Assembly: GCA_963809395.1 (NCBI GenBank) | Contig: CAWEJM010000010.1 | Span: 117,776 to 181,775 of the forward strand | Reading direction: 5' to 3' | Source: an uncultured Actinomycetes bacterium | GTDB taxonomy: Bacteria; Actinomycetota; Thermoleophilia; RBG-16-64-13 | DNA length: 64,000 nt | Shown: positions 10,868 through 55,314 of the stretch, piece by piece | Layout: each line of letters starts with the position of its first letter | How positions within the stretch are numbered: position 1 is the first letter of the stretch | Translations under genes and position numbers: made by a program | The notes under the pieces: model-generated | The model's input: the letters and a program-made list of their open reading frames with translations, nothing else | Database searches by the model: none | Told to the model about the DNA's origin: nothing

Positions 10868-11730
10868 CCAGCTCGTAGCCAGCGGCGCGCAGCCGCTTGA
10901 TGATGGAGGGCAGCGCCTCGGCGGTGTGTTTGCCGGCCATGTGCATCAGCACGATGGCCCCATTGTGAGCGTTGCCCATCACCGTCTCCGTGATTTGGGC
11001 GGCGGTGCGGCCCCGCCAATCGTTGGTGTCGACATCCCACATGACCACGTACTTGAAGCCCTTCTCTGCGGCCACCTCGCACGTCTTCTGGTCGATGAAC
11101 CCGCCTGGAGGGCGGAAGAGCGCGACGGTGGGGGCTCCGGTCAGTTCCCGGTAGTGATCGGTGCCGTTCCCGATCTCGATGCGCAAACCACGCTTTGAGA
11201 GCTTCGGGCAATTGGCGTGGCTACGGGTGTGATCGCCCACTTCGAAGCCGCCGGCGGCGATCTCCTTGAGCCAGGCTTTGGCCCCAGGTCGACGTAGTGA
11301 CCGATGACGAACAGGGTCGCCGGCACTTTGTATTGTCTGAGCACGGCGAGCGTCTTGCGAAGCCTTCTCGCCCTGGTAGTTGTCGTCGAAGGTGAGGGCG
11401 ATCCACTTGCGGTCGGCGGGGCCGTGCCTGACGATCGGGGCGGCGGTCTGCGCAGCGACGTGGTCGTCGTGCTCGAGCTGAGCTGTCGACGTGGTCGACC
11501 ATGGCTTGTAGAGGTCACTCCGGCCTCTGTCGTGGTGGTCGTGGTCGACGTAAGGGTCGAGGAGGTCGACGGGAACCGCGCTGGCGGTGGTCGCGCCCGG
11601 CAGTCCGGTGGTGCTCGTGGAGTCCTCGGGCGAGGCGCATGAGGCGATGAGCACGACGGCGAGTCACGAGCCGCCGCTGCAACCGTACGCGCAACTCCCA
11701 GACCCAGGTGCCGTCGACGTCGGACCGTCT
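10839..11730 (-). CDS. polysaccharide deacetylase (NodB/CE4 family), probable lipoprotein, frameshifted
   Basis: NodB motifs (IALTFDDNY, LFRPPGG, VVMWDVDTNDW, LMHMAGKHTAEALP); middle of domain (KTLAVLRQYKVPATLFVIGHYV) lies in second frame (ORF 11141..11860), so at least two frameshifts; lipobox LIASC preceded in another frame by Tat-like RRRRHLGLGVARTVAAAA; 5' boundary uncertain. Confidence 0.7.
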
Positions 11731-11859
11731 TCCGGGCGAGCGATCGCCGTGAACTCTGCTCCGCTTTCCATGCCGCGATTCTACGCTCGCAGGCCTTCGG
11801 GATCCTCGCGGGACGTGCGGCGCTGACCGTCCGTCGCCACCTGCTAGAATCCCTCTGCA

Positions 11860-14760
<2,901 letters not shown>

Positions 14761-14767
<7 letters not shown>

Positions 14768-16194
14768 CGGGGGGCGGACGGGATGACGATTGCCGTTACG
14801 GGGGGAAATCGCGTTGGAGAAGCGAGCGAGCCTATCTCATCGCCGTCGACAGCGGTGACGATGCCGGCTGGAGCGCGGAGGAGTCTCTGGGCGAGTTGTC
14901 GGCGCTGGTGGAGACGGCGGGGGCCGAGGTGGTGGGCATGGTCGCTCAGCACCGGGAATCGATCCACCCGATCTGGTATCTGGGCAAAGGCAAAGCCGAG
15001 GAACTGAAGGCGGCCAAGGGCGCTACCGGCTTCTCGCTCCTGGTGGCCGACGACGAGTTGTCGCCCAAGCAGCAGCGGTCGCTGGAGGAACTGCTGGACG
15101 TGAAGGTGCTCGACCGCAGCGGGGTGATCCTCGACATCTTCGCCCAGCGGGCGCAGACGCATGAGGGGCGCATCCAGGTGGAACTGGCCCAGCTCGAGTA
15201 CCAGCTTCCCCGGCTTACCAGGTTGTGGACCCACCTCTCGCGCACCGGAGGGGGCGGCATCGGCACCCGCGGCCCCGGCGAGACCCAGCTCGAGACCGAC
15301 CGCCGGGTCATCCGGGAGCGCATCAAGAAGACGAGGGAGCGCGTGGACGAGGTGCGCCGCCGCCGCGAGACCGCGGCGCGGGCGCGCGACCGCCGCCTCC
15401 TGCCAACCGTGGCGATCGTGGGCTACACCAACGCCGGCAAGTCGACCTTGCTCAACGCGCTGGTCGGCGAGGAAGCCGCGGTGGTCGAGGACAGGCTCTT
15501 CGCCACCCTCGACCCGACCACGCGCCGCGTGCGGCTGGGAGAGGGCCAGACCGTGATCGTGAGCGACACGGTGGGCTTCATCCACAAACTGCCGCACCAA
15601 CTGGTGGAGGCCTTCCAGGCCACCCTCGAGGAGGTCACCCGAGCCGACGCCCTGATCGAGGTGGTGGACCTTGCCGACCGGCACGCGGCCGAGCACCGGC
15701 GCACCGTGCAGACGGTCTTGGACGAGTTGGGGGCGGGTCACAAGCCGCGAGTGGTGGTGCTGAACAAGGCCGACCGGGCCGAAGTCGTTCCGGGCGTGCA
15801 CCCGGTCCACAGCGGGATCGTTCGCCGCGACGATCAGCACGTGCTGAGAGTGTCGGCGCTCACCGGCGCGGGCATCGACGAGATGCGCGCCCTGGTGGCC
15901 ACGGTCTTGGCCGAACTATGGCTGGAAGTGGACCTTCCGGTGCCCTATTCGGCGGGCGAACTACTGGCCCGGGTCAGGGAGCGCGGTACCGTGGTCTTCG
16001 AGTACCGCGACGAGGACGTGAGGATCAAGGGCCGGGTGCCGCCCTCGATGGCCGGGGAGCTACAGAGGGTCGGTCTGGGTTGGGAGCGCGCCCTGCGGGC
16101 GCGCGAACGCGGGAACAGGGTGGGCGACGAAGCGACCGATGAGGTGGCCGGCGAGACGGTGGACGCGGCGGACGGGGCGGAGGCCGACCTCTAG
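14761..16194 (+). CDS. hflX: GTPase HflX
   Basis: HflX N-domain, G-domain GYTNAGKST...DTVGF...NKAD, C-terminal domain; GTG start overlapping uvrA stop. Confidence 0.85.
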
Positions 16195-17250
16195 AAGTAC
16201 TCGTGCGCTCGCAGGATCGCGGCCGCGACCAGCGCCGCGCCTTGCTCCAGGTCGCGCAAGGACAGCACCTCCACCGGCGAGTGGATGTAGCGCGTGGGCA
16301 CGCTGATGACGCTGCAGGGGATGCCGGTCTTGGTGATGTGGATCGCCGTGGCGTCGGTGTTGCCGCCGTCGCCGACCTCCAACTGATAGGGGATCGAGGC
16401 CTTTTCGGCCGACTCCCTGAGCCAGCGGACCACGGGACGGGGAGCGATGACGCCCCGGCCGGCCGCATCGAGGATGGTTATGGTGGGGCCCTTGCCCGCG
16501 ACGACATGGGACTCGTTCCTGGTCACCCCCGGATGGTCGCCCGGTATGGTGACGTCCGTGGCCAAGGCGACGTCTGGGTTGAGGCCGTAGGCGCTGGTGC
16601 GGGCTCCCTTCAGCCCCACTTCCTCTTGCACGGTGCCCACGGCCTGGACGGTGGCCCGCACCCTCTTGCCCTTCAGCCGCTGCAGCGCCGCCACCATCAT
16701 CACCACGACCGGCGCGGTTGTCGAGAGCCTTGCCGGTGACGAAGTCGTTGCCCATCCGGCGCAGCTCGCGATCGATGGTGATGGGCGAACCGATCTCCAC
16801 TCCCATCTCGGCGGCGTTGGCCGCGCTGGTCGCACCGCAGTCGACGAACATGTCCTTCAGCTTGACCATCTTCTTGCGTTCCTCGGCGTCCATCAGATGG
16901 GGCGGCCGCGAACCGACGACGCCGGGGATGCGCTTGCCGTCCAGCGTGTGGATCATCACCCGCTGGCTGAGAATGGTCTGGTCGAACCAACCGCCTATGG
17001 ACACCACCCGCAGGTAGCCGTCGTCATCGATGTGGGAGACGATCAGGCCGATCTCGTCCATGTGGGCTGCCACCATGACCACGGGGCCGTCGCCGGAACG
17101 GATCCCGATGACATTGCCCATCTTGTCGGTGCGGACCTCGTCGACCAGCGGCTCCATTTCGCGCCGCAGGAGGGCGGCCACATCTTCCTCGTAACCGGAG
17201 AGACCGTGAGCATCGGAGAACATGGTGAGGAGGGTGGCCATGTCTTTCAT
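16191..17250 (-). CDS. M42 family glutamyl aminopeptidase (FrvX/PepA-like), frameshifted
   Basis: N-terminal half in ORF 16060..17280 (MKDMATLLTMFSDAHGLSGYE...HMDEIGLIVSHID), C-terminal half in ORF 16191..16835 (metal-binding GDHPG region); frameshift near 16740; stop shares CTAG with hflX stop. Confidence 0.8.
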
Positions 17251-41002: not shown

Positions 41003-41901
41003 GCTCCGGCGCTTCGGCGCTGGGTTCGCCGAGGGGACGAAGGGTGTCGCGGTCGGCATCTATCGCCACGACTGCCTGGGTCTGGCGGCACAGATAGCCT
41101 ACAGCGCTCTCTTCAGCTTGTTCCCGTTTCTCTTGTTCCTGCGCGCGCTCGTGGCCTATCTCCCGCCGACCGAACAGTTGGCCACCCGGCTTCTCGACGG
41201 TCTGGCTCAGCTGGTCAGCACCGACAGCCGCCTGTATCAGATCGTCGAGCAGAACGTGTTCAACGAGATCGGCGCGGCCAGCGTGGCTCTCTTGTCGGTC
41301 GGCATCGTTCTGACCCTGTGGAGCGCTTCCGGCGCGGTCATGACGCTGATCAAGGCGGTCAACCGCGCGTATGGACTCGAGGAGACCCGTTCGTGGGGCC
41401 GGAGACGGCTCATGGCGGCGGGGTTGGCGATCGCGGGGGCGATCCTCATCCCGGCCGGCGTCCTTCTGCTGGTGTTCGGGTCGTGGATCGGCGACCTGAT
41501 CGGCCGCGAGACCGGCTACGACTCCGCATTCCACGTGCTCTGGGTGGGCCTGCGCTGGCCCGTGGTCTTCATCTTGCTGGTGGTCGCCGTCGGGGCTTTC
41601 TTCTATTTCGCCCCCAGATGCGCGACAGAAGTGGTACAGCGCCATCCCGGGGGCGCTGTTTGCGGTCGGAGCGATCATCGGATCGTCGATCGGACTGTCG
41701 TGGTTCTTGAGTCAGAGCGTCTTCCAAGTGCGCTGGCTGACCTATGGGGTCATCGGGACCGCCATCGTGCTGTTGTTCTGGGCCTTCGTCATCGGGCTGA
41801 TGGTGCTGATCGGGGGGGAGATAAACGCCGCCGTTCGCCGAGCCGTGGACCACGGCAAAGAGGGGGCCGGGGGTCTGGTAGAATCGGCTCACGATGAGTG
41901 A
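40992..41901 (+). CDS. YihY/BrkB family inner-membrane protein
   Basis: YihY-family membrane core (IAYSALFSLFPFLLF..., VLTLWSASGAVMTLIKAVNRAYG); last TM segments in ORFs 41569-41700 and 41707..41901 after two frameshifts. Confidence 0.7.
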
Positions 41902-42586
41902 AACAGATCCGCACATCCCCGACCCGCGCGCGATAGGCGTGTTCGATTCGGGCGTGGGCGGGCTCACCGTCCTCCACGAATGCCTGGTCAACCTGCCCCA
42001 CGAGGACTTCGTCTATCTTGGTGACACCGGAAACTTCCCCTACGGGCCGAAGCCGCTGGCCGAAGTCCGCCGACTCGCGTTCACGGCGGCAGGTTTTCTG
42101 GTCGAACGGGGAGTGAAGCTCGATCGTCATCGCCTGCAATTCGGCAGCCGCGGCGGCGCTACCGCAGTTGCAGGCCGCTTTCGCCACTCCCATCGTGGGG
42201 GTGGTGATGCCCGGGGCTCGCGCGGCTGTGCAGGAGACGCGCAGCCGGCGGGTGGGTATTCTGGCCACGGAGGCCACCGTTCGCTCCAACGCCTATCAGA
42301 AGGCTCTCCACACCCTCGACGCCGGGCTGGAGGTGTTTGCCGTGGCCTGTCCTCGTCTTGCTCCGCTCATCCAGGAAGGCGATGTGTTCTCCGAGGAGAC
42401 CGAGCGGGCGGCGCGCGAGTACGTCGCCCCCTTGAAGGAGGCCGCTGTCGACACGGTGATCTTGGGATGCACGCACTATCCCCTGATCAGCCCCGATGCT
42501 TGCGACGGCTGCTGGGCCCACACGTGGCTTTGATCAATTCGGCCGAGGAGACCGCGCGGGAGGTGGGCGAGATTCTTGGAGCGTAA
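41894..42586 (+). CDS. murI: glutamate racemase
   Basis: VFDSGVGGLTVL, YLGDTGNFPYG, ...IVIACNSAAA (second frame), ILGCTHYPL; frameshifts near 42130 and 42500. Confidence 0.85.
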   Translation: MSETDPHIPDPRAIGVFDSGVGGLTVLHECLVNLPHEDFVYLGDTGNFPYGPKPLAEVRRLAFTAAGFLVERGVKLDRHRLQFGSRGGATAVAGRFRHSHRGGGDARGSRGCAGDAQPAGGYSGHGGHRSLQRLSEGSPHPRRRAGGVCRGLSSSCSAHPGRRCVLRGDRAGGARVRRPLEGGRCRHGDLGMHALSPDQPRCLRRLLGPHVALINSAEETAREVGEILGA

Positions 42587-42709
42587 GGCGATAGGCAACG
42601 CCGAGCAGCGCGAGGGTGATTACCGCTTCTTCGCGACCGGCAACAGCGAGGAGTTCAGGGAAGTGGGGGCCCGTTTCCTGCAGCTGCCCATCCGGGAGGT
42701 GACCCAGAT

Positions 42710-43475
42710 ATGAGCAACGGAGGCAGAGTCGGGACGCGAGGTCCGGCGGAGATGCGCGTCCTGAAGATCACCCCGGACTTCGTCCGCACGGCGGACGGTT
42801 CGGTCTTCATGGAGCTGGGAGGTACGCGCGTTCTGTGCTCGGCCCAGGTGGTCAACGGGGTCCCGGGCTGGCGCCGGGGGAGCGGTGCAGGCTGGCTGAC
42901 TGCTGAGTACTCGCTCTTGCCCAGTTCCACGCGCGATCGCACTCCGCGGGAGGCGGTGCGCGGGAAGCAAGACGGCCGGACGGTGGAGATCCAGCGCTTC
43001 ATCGGACGCAGTCTGCGGGCGGTGGTAGATCTGCAGGCTCTGGGGGAGCGCACGATCTACGTCGATTGCGATGTGGTGGAGGCCGACGGCGGCACGCGCT
43101 GCGTGGCGGTGAGCGGAGGCTATCTCGCCCTGCACTTGGCGCTGAAGCGGGCCGTCGATAGTAGGGCGCTTAAGGCGCTGCCGCTCAACGACTCGGTAGC
43201 GGCGGTAAGCGTGGGGGTGGTCGGAGAGATGCCGGTCGTCGATCTGGAGTACCAGAAGACTGCGTCGCTCAGGTGGACATGAACGTGGTGATGACCGGAA
43301 ACGGTCGCTTGGTCGAAGTCCAAGCGACGGCCGAGACGCACCCGTTCGAGCGGAGCGTGCTGGACGAGCTTCTTCGATCTGGCCGAGGAGCGGGATCGCC
43401 GGGATCAGGGCGGCGCAGATGGAGGTGGTGGCCCGAGCCTACGCTGAGGGCACCGGGGTGCCGCCGCGATCGTGA
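42710..43475 (+). CDS. rph: ribonuclease PH
   Basis: RNase PH core ([26 protein letters not shown]); frameshift near 43285; stop overlaps rdgB GTG start (GTGA). Confidence 0.85.
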
Positions 43476-44110
43476 TCGGATCCCTGGCCGTGGTTCTCGC
43501 TACCCGCAATCCCGGCAAGATCCGGGAGTTCGGGCGCCTATTGGGGGATGCGTTCCGGGTGGACCTGGTGCCGGACGCGGTGGAGCTGCCCGAGGAGACC
43601 GGCCGGACGTTCGCGGAGAACGCTCGGATCAAGGCGGAGGCTGTGTTCGCCGCGCTCGGGCGGCGCCGTGCCGGTGCTGGCCGACGACTCCGGGCTGGAA
43701 GTCGCCGCCTTGGATGGCCGGCCGGGAGTGCTCTCGGCCCGCTATGCCGGCGACGCCGCCCGCGACGAGGACAACGTGAGCAAGCTCCTGGCCGAGCTGC
43801 GCGGGCGGGCCGACCGCGAGGCCCGCTTCGTGTGCGAGCTTTGCCTGATAGTGCCGCCCGACTCTTCGGTCCGCGGGAGCAGAACGTCGTATCATCGAGG
43901 ACACGAGGGGTGGTCGAGGGCACCATCACGGAGGCTCCTCGCGGCACGGACGGCTTCGGCTACGATCCCATCTTTCGCCCGCAGGGCCTGGAGGAGACGC
44001 TCGCCGAGACCTCGCCGGCGAGCAAAGACCTGGTCTCCCATCGGGGGGCGGCCGTGAGGGCGCTCATCGTCCGGCTTCGGGAGGAAGGGTTGCTCGGCCA
44101 TGGATCTTGA
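43472..44110 (+). CDS. rdgB: dITP/XTP pyrophosphatase (RdgB/HAM1 family)
   Basis: [14 protein letters not shown] start, ...[11 protein letters not shown] (second frame), [11 protein letters not shown]; two frameshifts; canonical rph-rdgB pair. Confidence 0.8.
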
Positions 44111-44474
44111 CGCGTTCGCGGACCTGGTCACCGAAGCCCTTGAGTCGCTGCCGGAGGAGTTTCTCGAGAAGCTCGAGAACGTCCAGGTGGATATCGAGGA
44201 GTGGCCCAGCCCGAACGATCTGCTGGACGCCGGGCTGTCGGCGAGGTCGAAGCACTCGCTCTTGGGTCTCTATCACGGAGTGCCCATGACCGAGCGTGGC
44301 ATCTACTACATGGCCTTCCCCGATCGCATCTCTATCTACCAGAAGCCGATAGAAGCGATGACCGGCCCCGACGAGGAGCGGATCAGGGAGCAGGTGCGGC
44401 GCACGGTCATCCACGAGATCGCCCATTACTACGGGATCTCGGACGAGCGACTGGACGAGTTGGGCTGGGGTTAG
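44100..44474 (+). CDS. zincin-like metallopeptidase family protein (DUF1025-like)
   Basis: Intact 124-aa ORF with HEIAHYYG (HExxH) motif near C-terminus. Confidence 0.65.
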   Translation: MDLDAFADLVTEALESLPEEFLEKLENVQVDIEEWPSPNDLLDAGLSARSKHSLLGLYHGVPMTERGIYYMAFPDRISIYQKPIEAMTGPDEERIREQVRRTVIHEIAHYYGISDERLDELGWG

Positions 44475-44850
44475 CGGGACAGCCTGCGGGCCAGCTCGAG
44501 GAGAAAGCGGCGATCGGTGGGCCGTATGCGCCTGGCCAGATGGGCCAACTCCCTCGTCTCGGCGTCTTCTTCGGCCACGTCTTCGAGGCTGAGTTGCTCT
44601 GGTTCGAAGAACGGGTCGTCCTCGTCCAGCGCGGCGTGGTAGAGGAGTTCGCGCGCCGGAACGCCCAGGGCCTCGGCTATGGCCTCGATGACGTCGGTGG
44701 TGGGGTTCTTGCGGCCCTTCTCGATGTCGCCCAGGTAGCTCTTCGAGACCCCGGATTCATCGGCGAGGGCCTGCAGAGTGAAGTCGCGGTCTGACCGCAG
44801 CCGGCGGACCGTGATCCCTATGTAGTCGGCTAGTCGCCTTTGCGTCACAG
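44471..44850 (-). CDS. XRE-family HTH transcriptional regulator
   Basis: HTH_XRE motif (TLQALADESGVSKSYLGDIEKGRKNPTTDVIEAIAEALGV) followed by acidic C-terminal tail; divergent from larC; start tentative. Confidence 0.65.
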
Positions 44851-44978
44851 TGTCGCACCGGGTGTCGAACTGGGCCGTACGCCCTGCAGTGTATGGGGTG
44901 GCATGCGAGAATGCAACAACCATGAGGACTGCTACGGGAGTCAAGGGGAGCGGTAGGGTGAGCGACCGGCGTGATGAA

Positions 44979-46203
44979 GTGAGATATCCTGTTCCTGGAT
45001 CCGTGGACGGGGATATCCGGCGACATGCTCTTGGCCTGTCTGCTGGATATCGATCGAGAAGACGGTCGCCTGGAGGCGGAGCTGCGTCGAGCGGTGGCAG
45101 CCATGGGCCTGGGCACGGCCATGGTAGAAGTCGTGCGCGACGTGGAGCGCGGGGTGTCGTGCACGCGGGTACGGGTGCACGACGAGGACGCTCCCCCTAT
45201 CCGGCATCTGGCGGATATGGAGCGGATCATCGGGAACGCGTCGCTCTCGCAGTGGGTGCGAAGCCGGGCCACGGAGGCCGTTGGTCGTCTGGCTGCAGTG
45301 GAGGCCGCTGTCCACGGATGCACGGTGGATGAGATCCACTTCCACGAAGTAGGCGCCGTCGATACCTTGGTGGACGTGGTGGGCGCGTTCGTCCTTGTTG
45401 AGGCCCTTGGGGTCGAAAAGCTGGTTGTGGGGCCGATTCCGGTGGGCGGGGGGACGGTCGATATCGCCCATGGCCGCATGGGGGTGCCCGCGCCGGCCAC
45501 GGTCCGGCTGCTGGAGGGCTATCCCATCTTCGGAGGTCCGGAGATGCGGGAGTTGACTACTCCCACGGGCGCGCTGCTGGTGGGCCAATTGCGTGCCGAA
45601 CCAGGTTCGCTGCCGCTCATGCGGGTGGAGCGAGTGGGTTACGGAGCCGGTTCCATGAGACTGGAGCACGGTCCAAACGTCTTGCGAGCGGTGCTCGGCC
45701 GAGGGGTGACGAGTGACGGCGCTGAAGGCTCGCTCGAGGATCGCGACACGATCGTCGAGTTGGAGTCGAACCTGGACGATGTCTCACCCGAGGTGATGGG
45801 GCACGCCTGCCGGCTCCTGCGTGACGCCGGTGCGCTGGATGTGTGGACCGTGGCGGCGAACATGAAGAAGGATCGCCCCGGTACCGTGCTCCATGTTCTC
45901 GTGTCCCCGGAGAACGAGCAGGCCGCGGTGGAGGCCATCTTCGCGCAGACAGGCACTCTCGGGGTTCGACGGCGCGTGGTGTCACGCTGGCTGGCGACCC
46001 GGGGGACGGTGGGCGTCGTCGTGGGTGGAAGCGAGGTCCGGGTCAAGTGGGGCCGCTGGCGAGGCCGGCTGGTGAGCGTGGCGCCGGAGTACGAGGACGC
46101 CGCCGCCGTTTCGGCCGCGACGGGACTGCCGGTGAAAGACGTGATGCAGCAGGCAGTCGGGGCGGCGTGGGACCTGTTGGCGCCCGGGCATCTGTTACCA
46201 TAG
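44979..46203 (+). CDS. larC: LarC-family nickel insertion protein (DUF111)
   Basis: GTG start then MRY-LFLDPWTGISGDMLLACLLD (one extra C after codon 3 shifts frame), HFHEVGAVDTLVDVVGA motif, C-terminal LarC domain; 25 bp upstream of acsD on same strand. Confidence 0.75.
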
Positions 46204-46228
46204 GCCGTTCTTTCCTCGACCTGGAGAC

Positions 46229-47198
46229 GTGGTGGTACCTGCGGAGAAGACGTCTGTGAACGGACCCACCGAGGCATACCGGGGGAAGGTGCGCTCGCTC
46301 GACCTGGGTGGGCTGCTCGTGGGAGGAGGCGCAGCGTTTCCGCTTCACGGGTTTGATGGAGCGCTGCCGAACCCGCCCCGCGTGTGTCTGGAGGTGTGGG
46401 ACGCCGCGCCGGAAGACTGGTCGCCGGAACTGGCGGAGGTATTCGGCGACGTTTATGACGATGCGTTCGCGTGGGCGCGAACGGGCAGCGTCCTTGGGTG
46501 CAGACGCCCTCTATCTACGCCTGAAGAGCGCGGATTCCCACGGGGCCAGAGAGCAGCTGCTCGAAGTCGCGCGGAGGGCGAGGCGCATCGTGGAGGCGGC
46601 CGACCTGCCCTGTTTTGTGATCGGATGTGGCGATCCCGACGTAGATCGCGTTCTCTTACCCCTCGTCGGGGCCGAATGTGCCGGACGCCGAGTCGCTCTT
46701 GGAAACGCCGAGAACGGCACCTATCGTGACGTCGGCTGGGCTGCGGCGGCAAGCGGGCACGCTGTTGTCGCCTACACCCCCATGGACGTGAGCCTGGCCA
46801 AGCAACTCAACGTTCTTCTCGCCCAGGCGGGTATACCTGAGACGGATATCATCATGGACCCCACCTGCTCCGCCCTTGGTTACAGCTTTGAATATGCCTA
46901 CACGGTGTTCGAGCGGGATAGACTGGCGTCTCTCGCCCAGAACGACGCGAAGATGCAGGCGCCGCTGCTGGCCAACGTGGGTCAGGAGACGTGGCACGTC
47001 AAGGAGTCACGGGCGTCGGAGGAGGAACTACCTGGGCACGGAGAGCGGCTGACGCGCGGAGTGCTTTGGGAGAGCGTGAGCGCGGTCTGTCTGGTGCTGG
47101 CGGGGGCCGATGTCGTCGTCGTGCGCCATCCGTCGTCCGTGCGACTCATCAAAGCGGCGATCGCCGCTCTCGCCGAGAGGACCGACTCGTGGCGTTGA
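46229..47198 (+). CDS. acsD: CO dehydrogenase/acetyl-CoA synthase corrinoid iron-sulfur protein small subunit (delta, AcsD/CdhD)
   Basis: Aligns along length with Moorella AcsD (LGYSFEYAYTVFERDRLASL vs [50 protein letters not shown] vs [30 protein letters not shown]); one frameshift near 46490. Confidence 0.8.
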
Positions 47199-48537
47199 GT
47201 GGTCTCCAGGTCTTCAAGCTGCTCCCAAAGACCAACTGTAAGGACTGTGGCTACCCCACCTGCATGGCGTTCGCGCTGCAGCTTGCCGCGGGAAAGACGA
47301 CGCTATCGGCGTGTCCGCACTTGGCTCCTGACGGTACTGGCCACCTTGGCCGATGTAGCCACGGCCGCTGTTCGTCGAGTGGAGATCGGACCGGCGGAAG
47401 ACCGGACGATCGTGGGGGAGGAGACGGTTCTCTACCGGCACGAGAAGCGCTTCGAGCACGCTCCGGCGCTGGCGGTGCTGGTCGACGACTCTCTTGACGA
47501 TGAGGGGTTCGCGGGATCTGATCGAGGACTTCCGCCACCAGCGGTTCGAACGGGTGGGGGAGATTCTGCGGCCGCGCCTGCTGGCGGTCGGATCGGCCGA
47601 CACAGATCGTCTTAAGTCCAGAGTGCGGACGGCCGCGGAACGGACTCGCGCCGGGATCGTGATCGTCAGCGACGACCCCGAGGCCCTCCTGGCGGCGGGC
47701 GAACCCATCAAGGAGTCGCGACCGCTTTTGTGTGGCGCCGGTCCCGCCACTTTCGACCGGGTCGCGGAAGTGGCGAGGACTCTTGACGTGCCCTTCGTGC
47801 TACGGGGGCAGAACCTGGAAGAGTTGGCCGACCTCGGCCGGCGGGCCCTGGACGCGGGTTTCGAACAGGTGGTGCTGGAGCCGGTGGTGCAGACGGCCGG
47901 TGATGCCCTGCAGGCGCATGTGTTCGTGCGCCGGGCCGCGGTCCGCGACAAGATCAAAGCACTTGGGTTCCCGACTATCGCCTTCCCCTGCCGGCTCACC
48001 GACGATCCCTTGCTTCAGACGGTGCTGGCCTCTGCCCTGATTGCGAAATACGCGGGCATCGTGGTCGTAGACACCATTGACCCCGCTCATAATCTACCCC
48101 TCCTCGCGCTTGCCCAAGGTCTCTTCACCGACCCGCAGAAGCCCATGATGGTGGATGCAGGCATCTATCCGGTCGGTGTACCGGGGCCGGAAAGCCCGGT
48201 GTTGCTCACCACCAACTTCTCTCTGACCTACTACACGGTGGTGGGCGAGGTGGAGAACAGCAAGGTGCCGGCGTGGCTCCTGGTGATGGACGTGGAGGGA
48301 CAGTCGGTGCTCACCGCCTGGGCGGCGGGCAAGTTCGTGGCCGACGCCATCGCCCCGTTCGTCAAGAAGTCGGGCATCGAGGACAAGGTGGGACACCGGA
48401 GGTTGATCATCCCCGGCTGCGTGGCCGGCATTCGGGCCGAGCTTGAGGCTGAGCTGGGCGACTGGGAAGTGTCCGTGGGGGTGCGGGAGGCTGCCGATAT
48501 CCCACGCTACCTGCGCGCGCTTCTGAGCGCTCGGTAG
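47189..48537 (+). CDS. acsC: corrinoid iron-sulfur protein large subunit (gamma, AcsC/CdhE)
   Basis: N-terminal [4Fe-4S] motif VALSGLQVFKLLPKTNCKDCGYPTCMAFALQLAAGKTTLSACPHL, TIM-barrel and C-terminal B12-binding Rossmann domain (ORF 47494..48537); at least two frameshifts 47330-47520. Confidence 0.8.
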
Positions 48538-48542
48538 GCCGG

Positions 48543-49491
48543 GTGCCGAGGATGCACGGAGAGGGAGTGGCCGGCGGCGCGGCCGTGATGAGCAGGCGAG
48601 CCGGGCAGGCCGAGGGACCGGGCCGGAAGCCGGAATGGCTCAAGAAACCGCTGCCCGACTCAGGCGCCCTGCGAAGGATGGAGACCATGCTGCGCGACAG
48701 GCGTCTCCACACGGTGTGCGAGAGTGCGCTGTGCCCGAATCTCGGTGAGTGCTTTGCCCGCGGCACGGCGACGTTTCTCATTATGGGCGACGTGTGCACC
48801 CGGGACTGTGGGTTCTGCGGCGTAGCCAGCGGCCGGCCGCTCAGCTTGGAGGCGGACGAGCCCCAGAATGTGGCTGAGGCGGTGGCTCGTCTGCGACTCC
48901 AGCACGTGGTGGTGACGTCGGTCACCCGGGACGATCTCGGCGATGGAGGGGCTGGCCACTATGTGGCCACCATGCGGGCCATTCGGTTCCGGGCGCCGGA
49001 GGTGACGGTGGAGGTGCTCGTTCCCGACTTTGCCGGTAGAATGGAGGACCTTGACCTAGTGCTGGATGAGGCTCCCGAGGTCTTCAACCACAATGTCGAG
49101 ACCGTCCCGCGTCTGTACAAGACCGTGCGGCCGCAGGCGGTGTACGAGCGTTCCTTGGCGGTGCTGCGGCGCGCCGCCGAGAGGAATCTGAGTCTGGTCA
49201 AGACCGGCTGGATGGTCGGACTGGGGGAGACCGAGGACGAAGTCAAGGCCCTGCTCGGAGAAGTGGCCGAGGTCGGGGTCGACATGGTCACCATCGGGCA
49301 GTATCTGCGGCCGTCTGGGCGGCACCTGCCGGTGACCGAGTACGTGCGACCGGAGGTGTTCGTCAGCTACCGGCTGTGGGGCGAAGCTCTCGGCCTGCAG
49401 GTGCACGCGGCCCCGTTCGTGCGCAGTTCCTTCCAGGCCGGCGAGAGCTTCGCCCGAGCCAAGACGCGTGGTGGGAAGGAAGAGCGAGTGA
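48543..49491 (+). CDS. lipA: lipoyl synthase
   Basis: KPEWLK, CxxxxC plus radical-SAM CTRDCGFC cluster motifs, NHNVETVPRLY, GLGET; probable stop TGA at 49489-49491 in adjacent frame. Confidence 0.8.
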
Positions 49492-50291
49492 TTCGTCGTA
49501 GCCGAGAACATCAACGTCATGAGAGCGGCCGTAGGCGCCGCGCTCAAGGCGCTGGACAAAGGCTCCCATCCAAGATCTGGCCAGGCGGTCGGTGGCGGCT
49601 GGGGCCGATGTCCTGGACGTGAATGTGGGGCCCGCCCGCAAGGACGGTGAGAGATCTCATGACTTTCGTCATCGAGGCTCTGGCCGAAGTGGTGAGTTGC
49701 CAGCTCTGTCTGGACACCACGAACGCCGCGGCCATGGAAGCGGGGATCATCCGCTGCCAAGAGCTGGGCCTGCCCCGGCCCATCGTCAATTCGTTTTCCC
49801 TGCAGCCGGACAAGCTGGAGCAGATCCTGCCGCTGGCCGCTCGATACGGGTGCGAGATCATCGGTATGACCATGCGGGGCTCCATCCCCATCACGGCTGC
49901 CGATCGCTTGAACCTCGCCTTCGAGCTGGTCACGGCCGCCAACGAGGCCGGCATCAGCAACGACCGCATCTTCATCGACCCGGTAGTCTTGCCTCTGGGA
50001 GTCGATATGGGCCAGCGACACGCGGTCGCCGTGCAAGAGGTCGTGGCGGCGCTGCCGCAGATGTTCGATCCCCCGGTACGCAGCCTCTGTGGACTGACGA
50101 ACATCTCGAGCGGAGCCCCCAATCATCTGAGGCCGGCGATCAACAATGCCTATATGGCCATGCTCGCGGCTTTGGGCGTCGAGCGCGGTGATCGTCGACG
50201 TCCTCGATCCTGAATGCATGCGTACCGTACGTTTGGTGCGCGCGTTGAGCGACCAGTCCCTGTATTCTGTCTCGGATGCCGAGTTCCACTA
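49488..50291 (+). CDS. acsE: methyltetrahydrofolate:corrinoid/iron-sulfur protein methyltransferase (AcsE/MeTr)
   Basis: Pterin-binding fold aligning with Moorella AcsE (FVVAENINVM, ADVLDVNVGPA, CQLCLDTTNAAAMEAG, LCGLTNISSGAP); GTG start overlaps lipA stop; frameshifts at start, near 49600 and near 50190. Confidence 0.8.
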
Positions 50292-50308
50292 GCAACGGGA
50301 GGTCTAGA

Positions 50309-51136
50309 GTGTTCAGACTAGTTGAGCGCAAGGAGATGTCCGAAGGCACGGTGATCCTCAACGAGATCGAGGCGCCTTCCATTGCGCGCAAGGCTAGACC
50401 CGGTCAGTTTGTCATTCTCAAGGCCAATGAGACGGGCGAACGCATACCTTTGACCATGGCGGATACGGATCCCGATAAGGGGACGATAACCGTGGTCTAC
50501 CAGGTGGTAGGCAAGTCCACGGCTTTGTTCAAGACCCTGCAAGTGGGTGACGGCTATCAAGACGTCATCGGCCCCTTGGGCAAGCCGACCCATCTCGAAA
50601 AAGTCGGCAAAGTCGTGTGCGTGGGCGGCGGCACCGGCGTCGCGGTCTTGTACCCGATAACTCGCGGTCTCAAGGAGATCGGCAATCACGTGATCGGCAT
50701 TATCGGCGCGCGCACCAAGGATCTACTCATTCTTGAAGACGAGATGAGGGCCGCTTCGCACGAGCTCCACGTGTGCACGGACGATGGCTCCTACGGTCAT
50801 CACGGCTTCGTCACCGAAGTGCTGGAGCGAGTCCTCGGCGAAGAGGACATCAAGCTCGTCGTTGCCATCGGACCCGTTCCCATGATGAAAGCGGTATCCA
50901 AGGTTACGAAGGAACGCGGTATACCGACGATGGTCAGTCTCAATCCGATCATGATCGACGGCACCGGGATGTGCGGTGGCTGTCGCGTCTCCGTGGGTGG
51001 CGAAACGAAGTTTGCCTGTGTGGATGGTCCCGAGTTCGACGGACATCAGGTAGATTATGATGAGTTGACGCTTCGCCTGCGGGCCTATCACGAAGATGAA
51101 GAACGCTGCTACGGCGAGTTCTGCAGGAATGGGTAG
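50309..51136 (+). CDS. NfnA/SudB-like FAD and [2Fe-2S] oxidoreductase subunit (PyrK family)
   Basis: Intact ORF, GTG start VFRLVERKEM; FAD/NAD-binding ferredoxin reductase fold with C-terminal GMCGGCRV cluster motif. Confidence 0.7.
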   Translation: MFRLVERKEMSEGTVILNEIEAPSIARKARPGQFVILKANETGERIPLTMADTDPDKGTITVVYQVVGKSTALFKTLQVGDGYQDVIGPLGKPTHLEKVGKVVCVGGGTGVAVLYPITRGLKEIGNHVIGIIGARTKDLLILEDEMRAASHELHVCTDDGSYGHHGFVTEVLERVLGEEDIKLVVAIGPVPMMKAVSKVTKERGIPTMVSLNPIMIDGTGMCGGCRVSVGGETKFACVDGPEFDGHQVDYDELTLRLRAYHEDEERCYGEFCRNG

Positions 51137-51146
51137 GGAAGGTTAA

Positions 51147-52573
51147 GATGTCGGAAGAAGCGACCAAGAAAGCGGCAAGAGAGCACATCGCACGGCATGC
51201 GATGCCGCAACAAGATCCCGACGGCGAGGGCCAAGAACTTCGATGAGGTTCCGCTTGGCTACAGCGCCGGAGACGGCCATGGAAGAGGCGGAAAGGTGTC
51301 TGCAGTGCAGAAACCCCGCCTGCGTGAGCCGGTTGCCCTGTCGGGGTGGATATCCCCGGATTCATCCGGCACATCAAGGAGGGGGAGTTCACAGAGGCGA
51401 TCAGAAACCTCTGGGGCAAGAACAGCCTGCCGGCGGTGTGCGGGCGGGTTTGTCCTCAGGAAACCCAGTGCGAAGAGAAATGCATCTTGGGCAAGAAGGG
51501 CGACCCGGTCGCGATCGGCAACCTGGAACGGTTTGCCGCCGACCAGGAAAGAGAACACGGTAGCGGCGCTTTGCCGCCCATAGCCGAGGCCAGCGGAAAG
51601 AGAGTGGCGGTCGTAGGGTCAGGGCCGGCAGGGTTGACGGTGGCCGGTGACCTGATCGCTCAAAGGTCACGAGGTGACGGTATTCGAAGCCTTCCACAAG
51701 CCCGGCGGTGTTCTCGTCTACGGTATTCCCGAATTCAGATTGCCGAAGGCCATCGTCGCCCAGGAAGTCAATTTCCTTGAGCGGCTGGGCGTGAAGCTGG
51801 TGTGCGATCAGGTGGTCGGAAGAACCATCACGGTCGATGAGCTCTTTGAGGAGGGTTACGATGCCGTGTTCATCGCCGTCGGAGCCGGGTTGCCGACTTT
51901 TCTGGACGTACCGGGCAAGAACCTCATCGGCATCTACTCCGCGAATGAGTACCTGACCCGGGCCAATCTCATGAAGGCCTACCGGTTCCCCGAGTACGAT
52001 ACCCCCATTATCCGGGGCAAGAATGTCGTCACGCTCGGGGCCGGCAACGTGGCGATGGACTCCGCCAGAACCGCCTTGCGCCTGGGGGCGAGAGCTCTCG
52101 GATCGTCTATCGGCGCTCGAGAACGGAGGTACCGGCTCGGAGCGAAGAGGTGCACCATGCCGAAGAAGAAGGGGTCGAATTCTTCTTCCTGGCCGCCCCG
52201 ACCAGATTCATCGGAAATGAACGGGGACGCGTTGTCGGCATGGAATGCAGAGAAGATGTGTCTTGGCGAACCGGACGAGTCGGGGCGTTGCCGGCCGGTT
52301 CCGATGGAAGATTCTGAGTTCGAGCTGGAGTGCGACCTGGTCATCGTCGCCGTGGGCGCCGGTGCCAATCCTTTGCTGACGAGATCCACCCCTGGGCTCG
52401 AGCTGAACAAGTGGGGTTATGTCAAGGTCGACGAGAAGACAGGCAAGACCACCAAGAAGGGCGTGTGGGCCGGTGGTGATATCGTTACCGGATCCGCCAC
52501 GGTCATACTGGCCATGGGAGCCGGCAGAGTAGCCGCCGATTCGATTCAGGATTACCTTACGTGGGGCTGGTAA
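51147..52573 (+). CDS. NfnB/SudA-like (GltD-family) NAD(P)H oxidoreductase subunit, frameshifted
   Basis: N-terminal 4Fe-4S region (ERCLQCRNPACV, IPGFIRHI, CGRVCPQETQCE), FAD/NAD(P) Rossmann domains (VAVVGSGPAGL, TLGAGNVAMD, VWAGGDIVTGSATV); at least four frameshifts. Confidence 0.7.
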
Positions 52574-52633: not shown

Positions 52634-55314
52634 GTGATGCCCGTCGACGCCGAGCCGACTGGGGCGCAGCCGGTGACTCTCACCCTTAACGGGCAGGAGA
52701 TCCAGGCGCTTCCCGGCCAGACTATTCTGGAGGTGGCGCGCGATGCGGGCGTCGACATCCCCACGCTTTGCCACGATCCTCGTCTCGAACCGTACGGCGC
52801 CTGCCGCCTGTGCCTGGTTGAGGTCGAGGGGGCTCGTGGACCTCTGGCCGCCTGTGGGACCGCCATCCGCGAGGGCATGAGCATCCAGACCCACAGCGAG
52901 AAGATCCGCAAGCTGCGGAAGTTCGTGTTGGAACTGCTGCTGACCAACCACCCGCTGGATTGCCCCGTGTGCGAGGCCGCGGGCGATTGTCGCCTGCAGG
53001 ACTACGCATACGAATACCTCGTCGACATGGTGCCTTGGGGCTGGCGTGCGCCGGTGTCCGGCGATGCCGGGGACCATCCGAACGTGGCCCACTTCAGCAG
53101 CCGCTGCATCCTCTGCGGAAGATGCGTCCGCATCTGTCGGGAAGTCATGTCCATCGGGTGCTGGGGCTATCGTGAAACGGGGCTATGAGAGCGAGGTCGA
53201 CACGCCCTATCGCCTGCCGCTGCAGGAGGTGGGTTGCGTGTCGTGCGGGCAGTGCGTGAGCACCTGCCCGGTCGGATCGGTTATCGGCCAGCGGACGCCT
53301 CAGGGGGCGCGGCAGTGGCAGACAGGCAAGACTGTCACCACCTGCTCGTACTGCGCCGACGGCTGCCGGCTGGTGCTGCACAGCTATCGCGGCAAGGTGG
53401 TTCGCGTCGCCTCAGAACTCGAGAAGGGCCTCAACGCCGGCAACCTGTGCGTCAAGGGGCGCTTCGGGATGGGCTACGCCAACGCCCCCGACCGGCTCAC
53501 CCAGCCACTGGTGAGGAATGCCGAGGGACTTCTGGAAGAGGCCTCTTGGGAGGAGGCTCTCGCGCGCGTCGTCGAGAAGGCCGCGGCCGTCCGGAACGAG
53601 CGGGGCGGCCAGGCTCTTGCCGCGGTGTGCGGCACGCACTGCACCAACGAAGCTGCATATCTGCTACAGAAGCTGGTGCGCACGCTTCTCGGGTCGAACA
53701 ACATCGACGCGATCGACAGCGCCGAACAGGCGGCGTCCGACGAAGCCCTGACTGCCGCGTTCGGTCTGGCCGCGGCGACGAACTCCCGCAAGGATCTGGC
53801 CGCGGCCGATGTGATCTTGGTCATCGGCGCGAATCTCACCGAGTCCGACCCGGTGCTGGCGCTTGACGTGATCAAGGCTCTTCGTAAGGGCAAGACCGTG
53901 ATCGTGATCGACCCGCGCACGACGGAGCTGGCGCGGCGCGCGACGCTGCACCTGGCCGTGAAGCCCGGGACGGATCTTGCGGCCCTTCGCGGGATCCTGC
54001 GGCATATTGTCGACCTCGGGCCTGCAGGACGGCGAGTTCATCGGCGCGCGCACCGAGGGTTTTGCGGCCCTCCAGGCTTCGCTCGAAGGGGTGGACGTAG
54101 CGGCTGAGGCCGCCGCGTGCGGGGTGGATGCCGATGCGCTGCGGGCGGCGGCCGTGGCCTACGGCCAGGCCGCCGCCGCCGCTATCCTGTACGGCCCGGG
54201 GCTGGCAGGAGGCCTCGGGGGCTCGCTCGCGCCCAGGCAGTCGCAACCGTACGTGCCGTCGCCGACTTGGCCCTGCTCACCGGCAACGTCGGACGCCCGG
54301 GCACCGGCGTGTACCCGCTGCGCTCCGGCGCCAACTCGCAGGGACTCAGCGACATGGGAGTGCGTCCCGACCGCCTGCCTGGAGGAGCGGCTTGTCCGGA
54401 GCGCGGAGCGCCCGGCAAGACGACGGCCCAGATACTCGAGGCCGCGGAAGCCGGGGAAGTCGGTTTCCTGTATGTCGTGGGAGCCGACCCGGCGCTGGCG
54501 CTTGCCGACGAGGCCCGAGTCCGAAAGGCTCTCGAAGGAGTGGACTTCCTGGTGGTCCAAGAGAGCTTCCTCAGCGACACGGCGCGCTACGCTCGACGTG
54601 GTACTCCCGGCGGCTGTGGCCGGAGAGGACGAGGGGACTTTCACCAACGTCGAGCGCTTCGTACAGAGAGTGCGCCCGGCTGCGCCCACCCTCGGCAAGA
54701 GCCTTCCCGACTGGAAGATCATCCAGGAGATCGCGAACCGGTTGGGCGCTGACTGGTCGTACGCTACGCCGGCGGACGTCATGCGCGAGATAGCTGAGGT
54801 GGTCCCGGCCTACAGAGGCATTTCATATGTCAGGCTCGAGGACGAAGCGCTGCAGTGGCCGTGTCCCGGCGCCGAGCACCCCGGCACCCCGATCCTGCAT
54901 GCTGAGGAGTTCACGCGGGGCAAAGGGTCTTTCGCGGCGGTCGAAGGTACGCCGTCCCGGGCATCGCCGGCGACGGACGCCGACTATCCCTTCGTGCTGC
55001 TCACCGGCTCGGTGCTCGAACACCACGGAACGGGCGTGAGGTCGCGGCGTTCGCCCGGCCTGACCAAGCTGGTGGAGGAGGCTCGGTTGGAGATCAACCC
55101 GGCCGACGCCGAGCGTCTCGGCGTTGCCGACGGCGATCGCGTGAGGGTGGTCGGTCGCACCCTCGCGGCGATCGAACTGCCTGCGTGGGTCACCGGTCGC
55201 GTGCCGGCTGGAGTGGTGTTCGTGCCCGGCTTCTCACCGGCGGCGCCTGTCACTCGCCTCCTGGAGAGCGATGCGAGCGGAGTACCGATGGTGCAGGTCG
55301 AGCGCCTGGTCTAG
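52634..55314 (+). CDS. fdhA: formate dehydrogenase catalytic subunit (Mo/W-bisPGD, Cys-type, NuoG-like N-terminus), frameshifted
   Basis: N-terminal 2Fe-2S ferredoxin and 4Fe-4S domains (CHDPRLEPYGACRLCLV, HPLDCPVCEAAGDCRLQ), MopB domain with active-site Cys TTCSYCADGCRL (no in-frame TGA, so not Sec), FDH motif RSGANSQG, C-terminal MGD cap; several frameshifts across ORFs 52634, 53046, 53977, 54117. Confidence 0.8.

Follow-up and report, generated by a model that had tools for sequence, protein, structure and literature searches.

The 64-kb stretch of DNA analyzed here (the window), from an uncultured Actinomycetes bacterium, carries a larC gene with a divergently oriented regulator on one side and a same-strand run of genes on the other. 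The features of this locus are as follows.

44471-44848, minus strand: XRE-family helix-turn-helix regulator (xre) of 125 aa with a GTG start, divergent from larC (PF01381 HTH_3, E=4e-17).
44877-44917, no strand: conserved intergenic block of about 41 nt, the probable shared promoter/operator of xre and larC.
44979-46203, plus strand: larC, CTP-dependent nickel cyclometallase of nickel-pincer nucleotide (NPN) biosynthesis, with one extra base at 44983.
46229-47198, plus strand: acsD, small subunit of the corrinoid iron-sulfur protein (CFeSP; PF03599), with one extra base near 46478.
47189-48537, plus strand: acsC, large corrinoid/Fe-S subunit of CFeSP, with extra bases near 47333 and 47517.
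48543-49622, plus strand: lipA, lipoyl synthase (TIGR00510, 361 bits, cut-off 310), with its homologous core at 48612-49484.
49492-50289, plus strand: acsE-like pterin-binding methyltransferase (PF00809), in at least four frame pieces.
50276-52573, plus strand: NfnAB-like pair, with a PyrK-like FAD/NAD subunit (50276-51136) and a GltD-like subunit (about 51148-52573) that has frame breaks.
52637-55314, plus strand: fdhA-like molybdopterin formate dehydrogenase alpha subunit, with frame breaks, the last gene of the same-strand run.

To judge from its sequence, the window gene is a bona fide, canonical larC. The Ni_insertion family PF01969 (IPR002822) matches plus-strand positions 44983-46203 across its entire profile (1-375 of 375, E=2e-118, 396 bits, cut-off 22), and both NCBIfam LarC models are passed (LarC1, TIGR00299, 188.7 bits, cut-off 90; LarC2, NF052512, 126.8 bits, cut-off 50), which bears out the family assignment made in the original prediction. 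PF01969 is the sole family match, with no P-loop ATPase fold of the MinD/CbiA type, and LarC and the CooC/AcsF nickel-insertion ATPases share neither fold nor family. The protein shares the LarC1-LarC2 two-domain architecture and the length of about 407 aa with the LarC proteins of Moorella thermoacetica (12bi) and Lactobacillus plantarum (6bwo), and the solved full-length Moorella entry matches it at E=2e-76. Unlike the genes of those two organisms, the window larC does not adjoin larB or larE. It is about 38% identical to the Firmicute LarC of Thermoanaerobacterium (locus L075), which has the classical larE-larB-larC arrangement, and the nearest LarC in the genome contigs searched is 80% identical (GCA_043801935.1).

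Activity of LarCMt requires a histidine cluster (H72, H108, H116, H118 and H160) and an acidic pocket (D15, R71, E104, E119, D124, D128 and E187) (PMC13510736). The window protein keeps every counterpart, respectively H76, H112, H120, H122 and H164, and D15, R75, E108, E123, D128, D132 and E191; H230 is likewise listed among the counterparts of crippling LarCMt mutations, and every such residue is present. Conservation of the cluster and pocket positions across 25 members of the lineage is complete or at least 90%, and dN/dS for the window gene, measured against the related locus L003 with the inserted base removed, is 0.12. The product most likely inserts nickel, in a CTP-dependent reaction, into pyridinium-3,5-bisthiocarboxylate mononucleotide to yield the nickel-pincer nucleotide. 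The gene had been predicted to begin at GTG 44979. The plus-strand gene is real, but the extra base at 44983 puts that codon in a different frame from the long ORF; the alternative in-frame starts are ATG 44922, which if used would leave the mRNA nearly leaderless, and GTG 44958.

The two genes that follow larC also pass their family models. Once repaired, AcsD (322 aa) scores 320.7 bits against NF003376 (cut-off 280) and matches the intact 321-aa ortholog of L003 at 96% identity (dN/dS 0.13), while repaired AcsC (448 aa) scores 501 bits against NF003195 (cut-off 306), shows the N-terminal CKDCGYPTC...C motif and has a dN/dS of 0.21. lipA is embedded between acsC and the acsE-like gene, whose four pieces together cover residues 2-265 of the AcsE of the relative L031 in tblastn; the intact L031 ortholog itself lies under both NCBIfam AcsE cut-offs (186 against 259 bits and 153 against 370). 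The NfnAB-like pair is supported by NF004862 (404 bits, cut-off 220), and the L001 ortholog of its GltD-like gene by TIGR01316 (612 bits, cut-off 472). The fdhA-like gene has the Pfam domains Molybdopterin, Molybdop_Fe4S4 and Molydop_binding; the best NCBIfam model for its L001 ortholog is TIGR01591 (Fdh-alpha), at 589 bits under a cut-off of 666. An fdhA-like gene lies downstream of larC in nearly all relatives.

As originally described, larC and acsD lie on the same strand with a gap of exactly 25 bp: the last base of the larC stop codon is 46203, and acsD starts at GTG 46229, preceded by GGAG. A consensus scan found neither a terminator nor a promoter between them, no hairpin is present at the junction, where folding is poorer than that of shuffled sequence (z=+1.87), and Rfam gave no match at E<=1 over 44300-51500, the NiCo riboswitch included. 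Read-through from larC into acsD is plausible given the short gap, the lack of these signals and the 10-nt overlap between the end of acsD and the start of acsC. The suggested co-transcription is thus plausible, and we consider it likely, though as a secondary outcome of cluster erosion.

The XRE regulator was correctly placed divergently upstream. It adjoins larC in all of about 45 related actinobacterial loci (66-99% identity), its dN/dS against L003 is 0.015, and its protein falls below the cut-off of every specific NCBIfam model. Each of 46 loci has a single copy of a 34-nt core, CTGCAGTGTATGRGGTGGCATGCGAGAATGCAAC, with no more than 5 mismatches, and in every case it lies between the two genes. 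The block contains TG-C-GAGAAT at 44904-44912 on the plus strand and TTGCAT-N17-TACACT on the minus strand, and to judge from its sequence it is probably a common promoter/operator for xre and larC.

LarB and LarE provide the P2TMN substrate on which LarC acts. Neither Pfam scanning of the ORFs nor tblastn searches with LarB and LarE queries turned up a larA, larB or larE in the 64-kb window, in agreement with the original prediction; larB and larE are absent within 45 kb upstream and 18 kb downstream of larC, and within 10 kb on either side of larC in every one of the roughly 45 related loci. No CODH, ACS, CooC/AcsF or RACo was found in the window by tblastn with proteins of L036 and L031, although these could be encoded elsewhere in the source genome. 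There is no nickel enzyme near larC within the window, and CFeSP itself contains cobalt and an Fe-S cluster, not nickel.

We compared gene neighborhoods by tblastn over 87 loci, taking 10 kb on either side of each; these include about 45 from related Actinomycetota, metagenome-assembled genomes labelled Thermoleophilia or Gaiellales, and 38 that are non-actinobacterial. The divergent xre-larC pair is fixed in the related loci, and the genes that follow larC vary. A full Wood-Ljungdahl cluster lies downstream in 6 loci, RACo-acsDC in 2, acsDC in the population to which the window belongs, and a RACo fragment followed by lipA in 2. In 31 loci the acs genes are gone and lipA directly follows larC (lipA-fdh only); CODH/ACS might be encoded elsewhere in those genomes, outside the 10-kb flanks. 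The basal relatives have the cluster typical of acetogens, fhs-RACo-cooC-fchA-folD-acsD-CODH-ACS, with a CooC-type P-loop ATPase, and for L036 Pfam confirmed the CbiA/CooC-type ATPase, CODH and ACS. By comparison with acetogen clusters, the window keeps acsD, acsC and the acsE-like gene, has lipA between acsC and acsE, and is without CODH, ACS, CooC and RACo at the locus. Scars of the missing genes remain in sister genomes: a 181-aa Fer2 ORF of L002 is the N-terminus of RACo (E=7e-42), and acsE remnants persist in L001 and L002. In a simple neighbor-joining tree of the single protein LarC, loci with the full cluster branch basally and those in partial states are spread over the tree. Horizontal acquisition of acsDC is not indicated, as the identities of AcsD and AcsC to L031 and L036 track those of LarC and the sister-genome scars point to loss.

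These comparisons lead us to favor, with reasonable confidence, a canonical larC whose NPN user is encoded elsewhere, next to which acsD came to lie as a by-product of gene-cluster erosion. The xre-larC pair would have formed the upstream edge of an ancestrally complete Wood-Ljungdahl cluster in this actinobacterial lineage, ordered fhs-RACo-cooC-fchA-folD-acsD-CODH-ACS and onward and, as in basal members, equipped with its own promoter; in the intermediate relative L031 the run goes on through acsC-lipA-acsE to fdh. Successive deletions would then have removed some parts of the cluster in one descendant and other parts in another. The window organism would have lost fhs together with its promoter, RACo, cooC, fchA, folD, CODH and ACS from the locus, and these deletions would have brought acsD-acsC-lipA-acsE-nfnAB-fdhA directly behind larC. 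The presence of larC 25 bp ahead of acsD would thus reflect the deletion of the genes between them, and the conserved promoter region of xre and larC probably now drives transcription of the genes from acsD to fdhA.

The original prediction had raised the possibility that larC serves nickel delivery or maturation in the CFeSP/ACS context, which if true would represent a new nickel route to acetyl-CoA synthase or the corrinoid protein. The survey argues against it. LarC is under equal purifying selection with or without acs genes: it is kept in the 31 acs-less loci, where pairs give a dN/dS of 0.10-0.20, and a full-cluster pair gives 0.21. The basal relatives have a CooC-type ATPase within the cluster and a separate promoter, TTGAAT/TTGCAT-N16-TATAAT, which L035, L036, L044 and L045 retain between larC and fhs and which the window lacks. 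Nor did conserved larC-acs synteny emerge from the neighborhood comparison, the linkage being confined to one vertically inherited block. None of the 38 non-actinobacterial LarC loci has acs genes; 17 have the classical larB(-larE)-larC order, and in 21 the fetched flanks contain neither larB nor larE. The pair does not recur in independent lineages or show the shared loss and retention that a functional association would leave, and we conclude that the function of LarC is independent of the acs genes.

It is possible, if unlikely, that larC is instead a functional member of a C1 (Wood-Ljungdahl/formate) regulon, co-regulated by the XRE protein, and that NPN or LarC-handled nickel serves an unrecognized enzyme of the pathway, such as an oxidoreductase that binds NPN despite its annotation as NAD(P)-dependent. 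In every member of the lineage C1-pathway genes directly follow larC on its own strand, at gaps of 25-115 bp in the derived loci, and the xre-larC promoter block is extremely conserved. Moreover, folds other than that of LarA use NPN, and many larBCE neighbors carry NAD(P)H oxidoreductase annotations (PMC13524815). However, the upstream housekeeping block rph-rdgB-zincin-xre is equally conserved, so the synteny of larC is better read as shared ancestry than as selection for linkage. The gene after larC differs widely (fhs, RACo, acsD, a Fer2 stub or lipA), redox partners have been exchanged (NuoEF-like in 30 loci, NfnAB-like in 5), the Wood-Ljungdahl genes of basal genomes have a separate strong promoter, and linkage in independent lineages stands at 0 of 38. 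A literature search for LarC tied to the Wood-Ljungdahl pathway or acs clusters likewise returned no linking paper, the matches being mostly incidental.

We give a smaller chance to an orphan LarC, in a genome devoid of larB and larE, that stores or delivers nickel outside NPN synthesis, possibly as a relic of CODH/ACS maturation. The absence of larB and larE from the window and from the 10-kb flanks at every actinobacterial locus is in keeping with this, as is the position of larC beside a CODH/ACS cluster in basal relatives. Yet the pocket residues for P2TMN and the CMP intermediate and the CTP domain of LarC2 are fully conserved under purifying selection, which would not be expected of a mere nickel chaperone; LarC has outlasted the acs genes at 31 loci, a CooC-type ATPase accompanies CODH/ACS, and other organisms are known to have dispersed lar genes. 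Slightly less probable again is a version in which larC is the promoter-proximal gene of an XRE-controlled C1 operon and NPN or LarC-delivered nickel is used by an unrecognized downstream formate or methyl enzyme, one that would survive even after the loss of CODH/ACS.

Frame breaks affect larC once (44983), acsD once (46478), acsC twice (about 47333 and 47517) and the acsE-like gene at least three times. Judged against four independent contigs of 93% identity with intact ORFs, single-base insertions run through the whole window at about one per 300-400 bp and occur in every gene, rph, rdgB and murI included; lon and fdhA are among the further genes affected, at a density similar to that of the larC and acs genes. 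The insertions are probably sequencing errors, and the breaks in larC, acsD, acsC and acsE, as part of this window-wide excess, are probably errors too. In L. plantarum, larC1 and larC2 are joined by a programmed frameshift; the window larC, by comparison, is not split in this way at the LarC1/LarC2 boundary. That the breaks are real, marking larC, acsD, acsC and acsE as pseudogenes in a locus whose acs module is demonstrably decaying in sister lineages, or a programmed frameshift in larC, is highly improbable and was rejected: all four genes are interrupted in the window as read, but housekeeping genes are equally hit, the relatives are intact, dN/dS after removal of the insertions is 0.12-0.21 for larC, acsD and acsC (0.02-0.21 overall), and the larC break falls at codon 2.

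Genomes that carry larBCE but lack larA are familiar and make up about 15% of the total (PMC11796402). An unlinked larC is ordinary too, and in Haloferax larB, larC and larE are dispersed (PMC8305020). The window larC is likewise apart from any larA, as in cyanobacteria and Haloferax volcanii; such genomes have documented larB and larE genes as well, and the NPN user is possibly not LarA-like (PMC11796402, PMC8305020, PMC13524815). An NPN-dependent enzyme elsewhere in the genome is the default reading here, and these Actinomycetota join the many organisms with no recognized NPN user, if the cofactor is made at all.

In summary, the locus holds an ordinary LarC whose neighbors have been altered by deletions, and no new nickel biology is indicated; since the neighbors changed in this way, the adjacency of larC and acsD is no sign of a new nickel delivery route. 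A 25-bp same-strand junction can arise from cluster erosion and promoter loss, and because erosion can yield such tight junctions, close spacing in one genome says little about a common function. The lineage itself shows clearly, step by step, how a Wood-Ljungdahl cluster decays, and the scars are still visible.

The gene that diverges from the XRE-type regulator in the window is larC and, as the original prediction had it, acsD/acsC follow 25 bp further on along the same strand; coordinates and Pfam matches agree on this arrangement.

Features of the larC locus in the window
44471-44848, opposite orientation to larC, XRE-type HTH gene
44983-46203, + strand, larC as a long ORF (407 aa; Pfam PF01969, Ni_insertion, entire profile, E=2e-118)
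46229, + strand, GTG of acsD after GGAG, the larC stop codon ending at 46203
47189-48537, + strand, acsC, overlapping the acsD end by 10 nt
Downstream of acsC, same strand, lipA, an acsE-like pterin methyltransferase gene, an NfnAB-like pair and the formate dehydrogenase alpha subunit gene (fdhA)

The start first proposed for larC, GTG 44979, is shifted by one base relative to the frame of the long ORF. Compared with L003-L006, four contigs that come from independent metagenomes and are 93% identical, the window has one surplus G at 44983; without it the N-terminus reads M-N-ILFLDPWTGISGDM, the GTG start being read as Met, which is usual for LarC. The remaining ORFs are housekeeping only in Pfam scans (pyrF, guaA, uvrA, uvrC, gap, pgk, an oligopeptide ABC transporter, sod, murI, rph, rdgB, lon, lexA, nadE and others), and tblastn with LarB, LarE, CODH, ACS, CooC and RACo gave no match within the 64 kb. 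The lar partners are thus missing from the window, as had been claimed, and so is CODH/ACS, which had been put forward as the only nickel enzyme nearby.

The acsD, acsC and acsE-like genes (46229-50289) are kept under purifying selection, yet RACo, CODH, ACS and CooC are absent from the locus. Between acsC and acsE lies a bona fide lipoyl synthase gene, lipA (48543-49622; 15505-16398 in the intermediate relative L031), a placement reminiscent of gcvH and lpdA within the acs clusters of clostridia. The acsE-like gene at window 49492-50289 has its ortholog at L031 16386-17183, whose product falls short of both NCBIfam cut-offs for AcsE (186 < 259 and 153 < 370) and so is a divergent pterin-binding methyltransferase. 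The electron-transfer genes before fdhA are NfnAB-like (PyrK-like plus GltD-like) in the window (50276-52573), L001, L002 and L007, and NuoE/NuoF-like in 30 other lineage loci (compared range L009-L060).

In public collections, the nearest LarC relatives belong to uncultured Actinomycetota that carry the labels Thermoleophilia, Gaiellales or "Actinobacteria RBG_16_64_13". We fetched 87 larC loci (L numbers), from relatives and from other phyla, and scored them by tblastn with the cluster proteins. An rph-rdgB-zincin-xre(-)/larC(+) block is invariant in all ~45 actinobacterial loci; the genes after larC vary.

Genes following larC, with LarC identity to the window
Complete Wood-Ljungdahl cluster, fhs-RACo-cooC-fchA-folD-acsD-CODH-ACS: 6 loci, L035, L036, L042, L044, L045, L052 (variant); 45-52%
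RACo-acsD-acsC: 2 loci, L030, L031; 56-60%
acsD-acsC directly: the window and L003-L006; 93-100%
RACo fragment, then lipA: 2 loci, L013, L002; 65-84%
lipA, NuoEF- or NfnAB-like genes, then fdhA: 31 loci; 52-83%

The complete cluster was Pfam-confirmed in L036. The RACo-acsD-acsC run goes on as lipA-acsE in L031 and stops at the contig edge in L030; lipA-acsE after a direct acsD-acsC pair is visible only in the window, as the L003-L006 contigs end inside acsC. The lineage forms a stepwise series of Wood-Ljungdahl erosion, with the six full-cluster loci set against L030, L031, L013, L002, L001 and 31 others, and lipA is the gene left adjoining larC once the acs genes are lost.

Remnants mark several of these losses. 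A 181-aa "ferredoxin" ORF behind larC in L002 (9828-10373) corresponds to RACo's N-terminal third (E=7e-42), L013 carries a RACo fragment at 11336-12739, and small remnants of acsE, from its N- and C-termini, persist after lipA in L001 (12352-12571) and L002 (11285-11532). In an NJ tree of LarC, loci with the full cluster branch at the base and those with a partial one lie dispersed among neighbours without acs genes, a pattern to be expected if an ancestral cluster eroded repeatedly and independently. Both acsD and acsC are already gone in the window's nearest relatives outside its own population (L001, L002 and L007; LarC identity 80-84%). Deletion would have produced the larC-acsD juxtaposition, and we consider it probable that LarC makes the nickel-pincer nucleotide (NPN) for a user encoded elsewhere, with larB and larE unlinked.

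The proposal that larC and acsD are co-transcribed probably holds for the present arrangement, but apparently not as an ancestral trait. Because the 25-bp gap has no terminator-like or promoter-like site, and the junction is less structured than shuffled sequence and has no Rfam match, read-through is likely; it appears to be secondary in origin. The basal relatives L035, L036, L044 and L045 conserve a near-consensus sigma-70-type promoter between larC and fhs (L036 8591-8618; TTGAAT or TTGCAT, 16-nt spacer, TATAAT; 10/12 consensus positions; intergene ~140-290 bp), and their Wood-Ljungdahl genes therefore have a start site of their own. This TTGAAT/TTGCAT-N16-TATAAT element was not found in the window, where it would have been lost along with fhs.

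Between xre and larC, a block of 34-41 nt (44877-44917) recurs with hardly any change in 46 loci, even though the LarC identity of its carriers drops to ~46%. It includes the palindromes CTGCAG and GCATGC, an extended -10 (TG-C-GAGAAT) on the + strand a few bases ahead of ATG 44922, and TTGCAT-N17-TACACT on the other strand toward xre, and probably serves xre and larC jointly as promoter/operator. It is improbable that larC is truly tied to C1 metabolism under the XRE regulator. As to dependence on the acs genes, LarC is full-length in acs-less loci, and its constraint is the same with or without acs genes (dN/dS 0.10-0.20 across seven pairs lacking acs genes and 0.21 in one with the full cluster; window versus L003, 0.12). 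Where CODH/ACS is present the cluster includes a CbiA/CooC-type ATPase, which means that nickel insertion has its usual machinery there. Synteny also ran against the nickel role in the CFeSP/ACS context first suggested for larC, because acs linkage, lost in the acs-less relatives, is confined to one shared ancestral block: tblastn of the fetched flanks found acs genes beside larC in 0/38 loci from other phyla, 17 of which have the classical larB(-larE)-larC arrangement and 21 no lar neighbour.

Less probable again is an orphan LarC with a nickel role outside NPN synthesis. The repaired protein exceeds the cut-offs of the NCBIfam equivalogs for LarC1 (TIGR00299, 188.7 bits, cut-off 90) and LarC2 (NF052512, 126.8 bits, cut-off 50), and can be aligned over its whole length to the solved structure of full-length Moorella thermoacetica LarC (12bi, E=2e-76). 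Replacing D15, R71, E104, H108, H116, H118, E119, D124, D128, H160, E187 or H226 crippled the Moorella enzyme; H72 is conserved, but its single replacement left activity unreduced (PMC13510736, a 2026 structure paper). All these residues, H72 included, are conserved in window LarC, at positions invariant or at least 90% conserved across 25 lineage members, and the only differences at residues listed there are at those the authors call poorly conserved (PMC13510736). By sequence, window LarC is a catalytically competent cyclometallase.

That the frameshifts are real is very hard to credit, despite one break in larC, one in acsD, two in acsC and at least three in acsE. Aligned to L003-L006, the window shows ~19 inserted single bases plus a few deletions over 6.8 kb (documented 41077-48036), scattered across murI, rph, rdgB, the zincin-like gene, larC, acsD and acsC, and against L001 proteins the frame changes at least 19 times from 34.9 to 58 kb (34900-58100). 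The density is ~1 per 300-400 bp in every gene, several insertions generate GATC or GATATC, and most long genes are split across frames as a result (uvrA, guaA, rph, fdhA, lon and others). Because all genes are hit, the ORFs are intact in relatives, and dN/dS against L003/L004 with inserted bases projected out is low (larC 0.12, acsD 0.13, acsC 0.21, housekeeping genes 0.02-0.21), the insertions look like assembly or basecalling error. On these grounds we rejected both pseudogenisation of larC and the acs genes and a programmed frameshift in larC.

Synthesis of NPN for a user elsewhere has precedent. About half of the LarC loci sampled lack a larB/larE neighbour, and in Haloferax larB and larE are unlinked to larC, as proposed here. 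Some 15% of genomes have NPN-synthesis genes and no larA (PMC11796402), and NPN is used by non-LarA folds (PMC13524815), so that larC without larA and non-LarA users are both already established. Within its known family the larC gene described here is unremarkable, and its lineage-specific setting is explainable; it offers little for nickel biology and somewhat more as an illustration of how a pathway cluster erodes.
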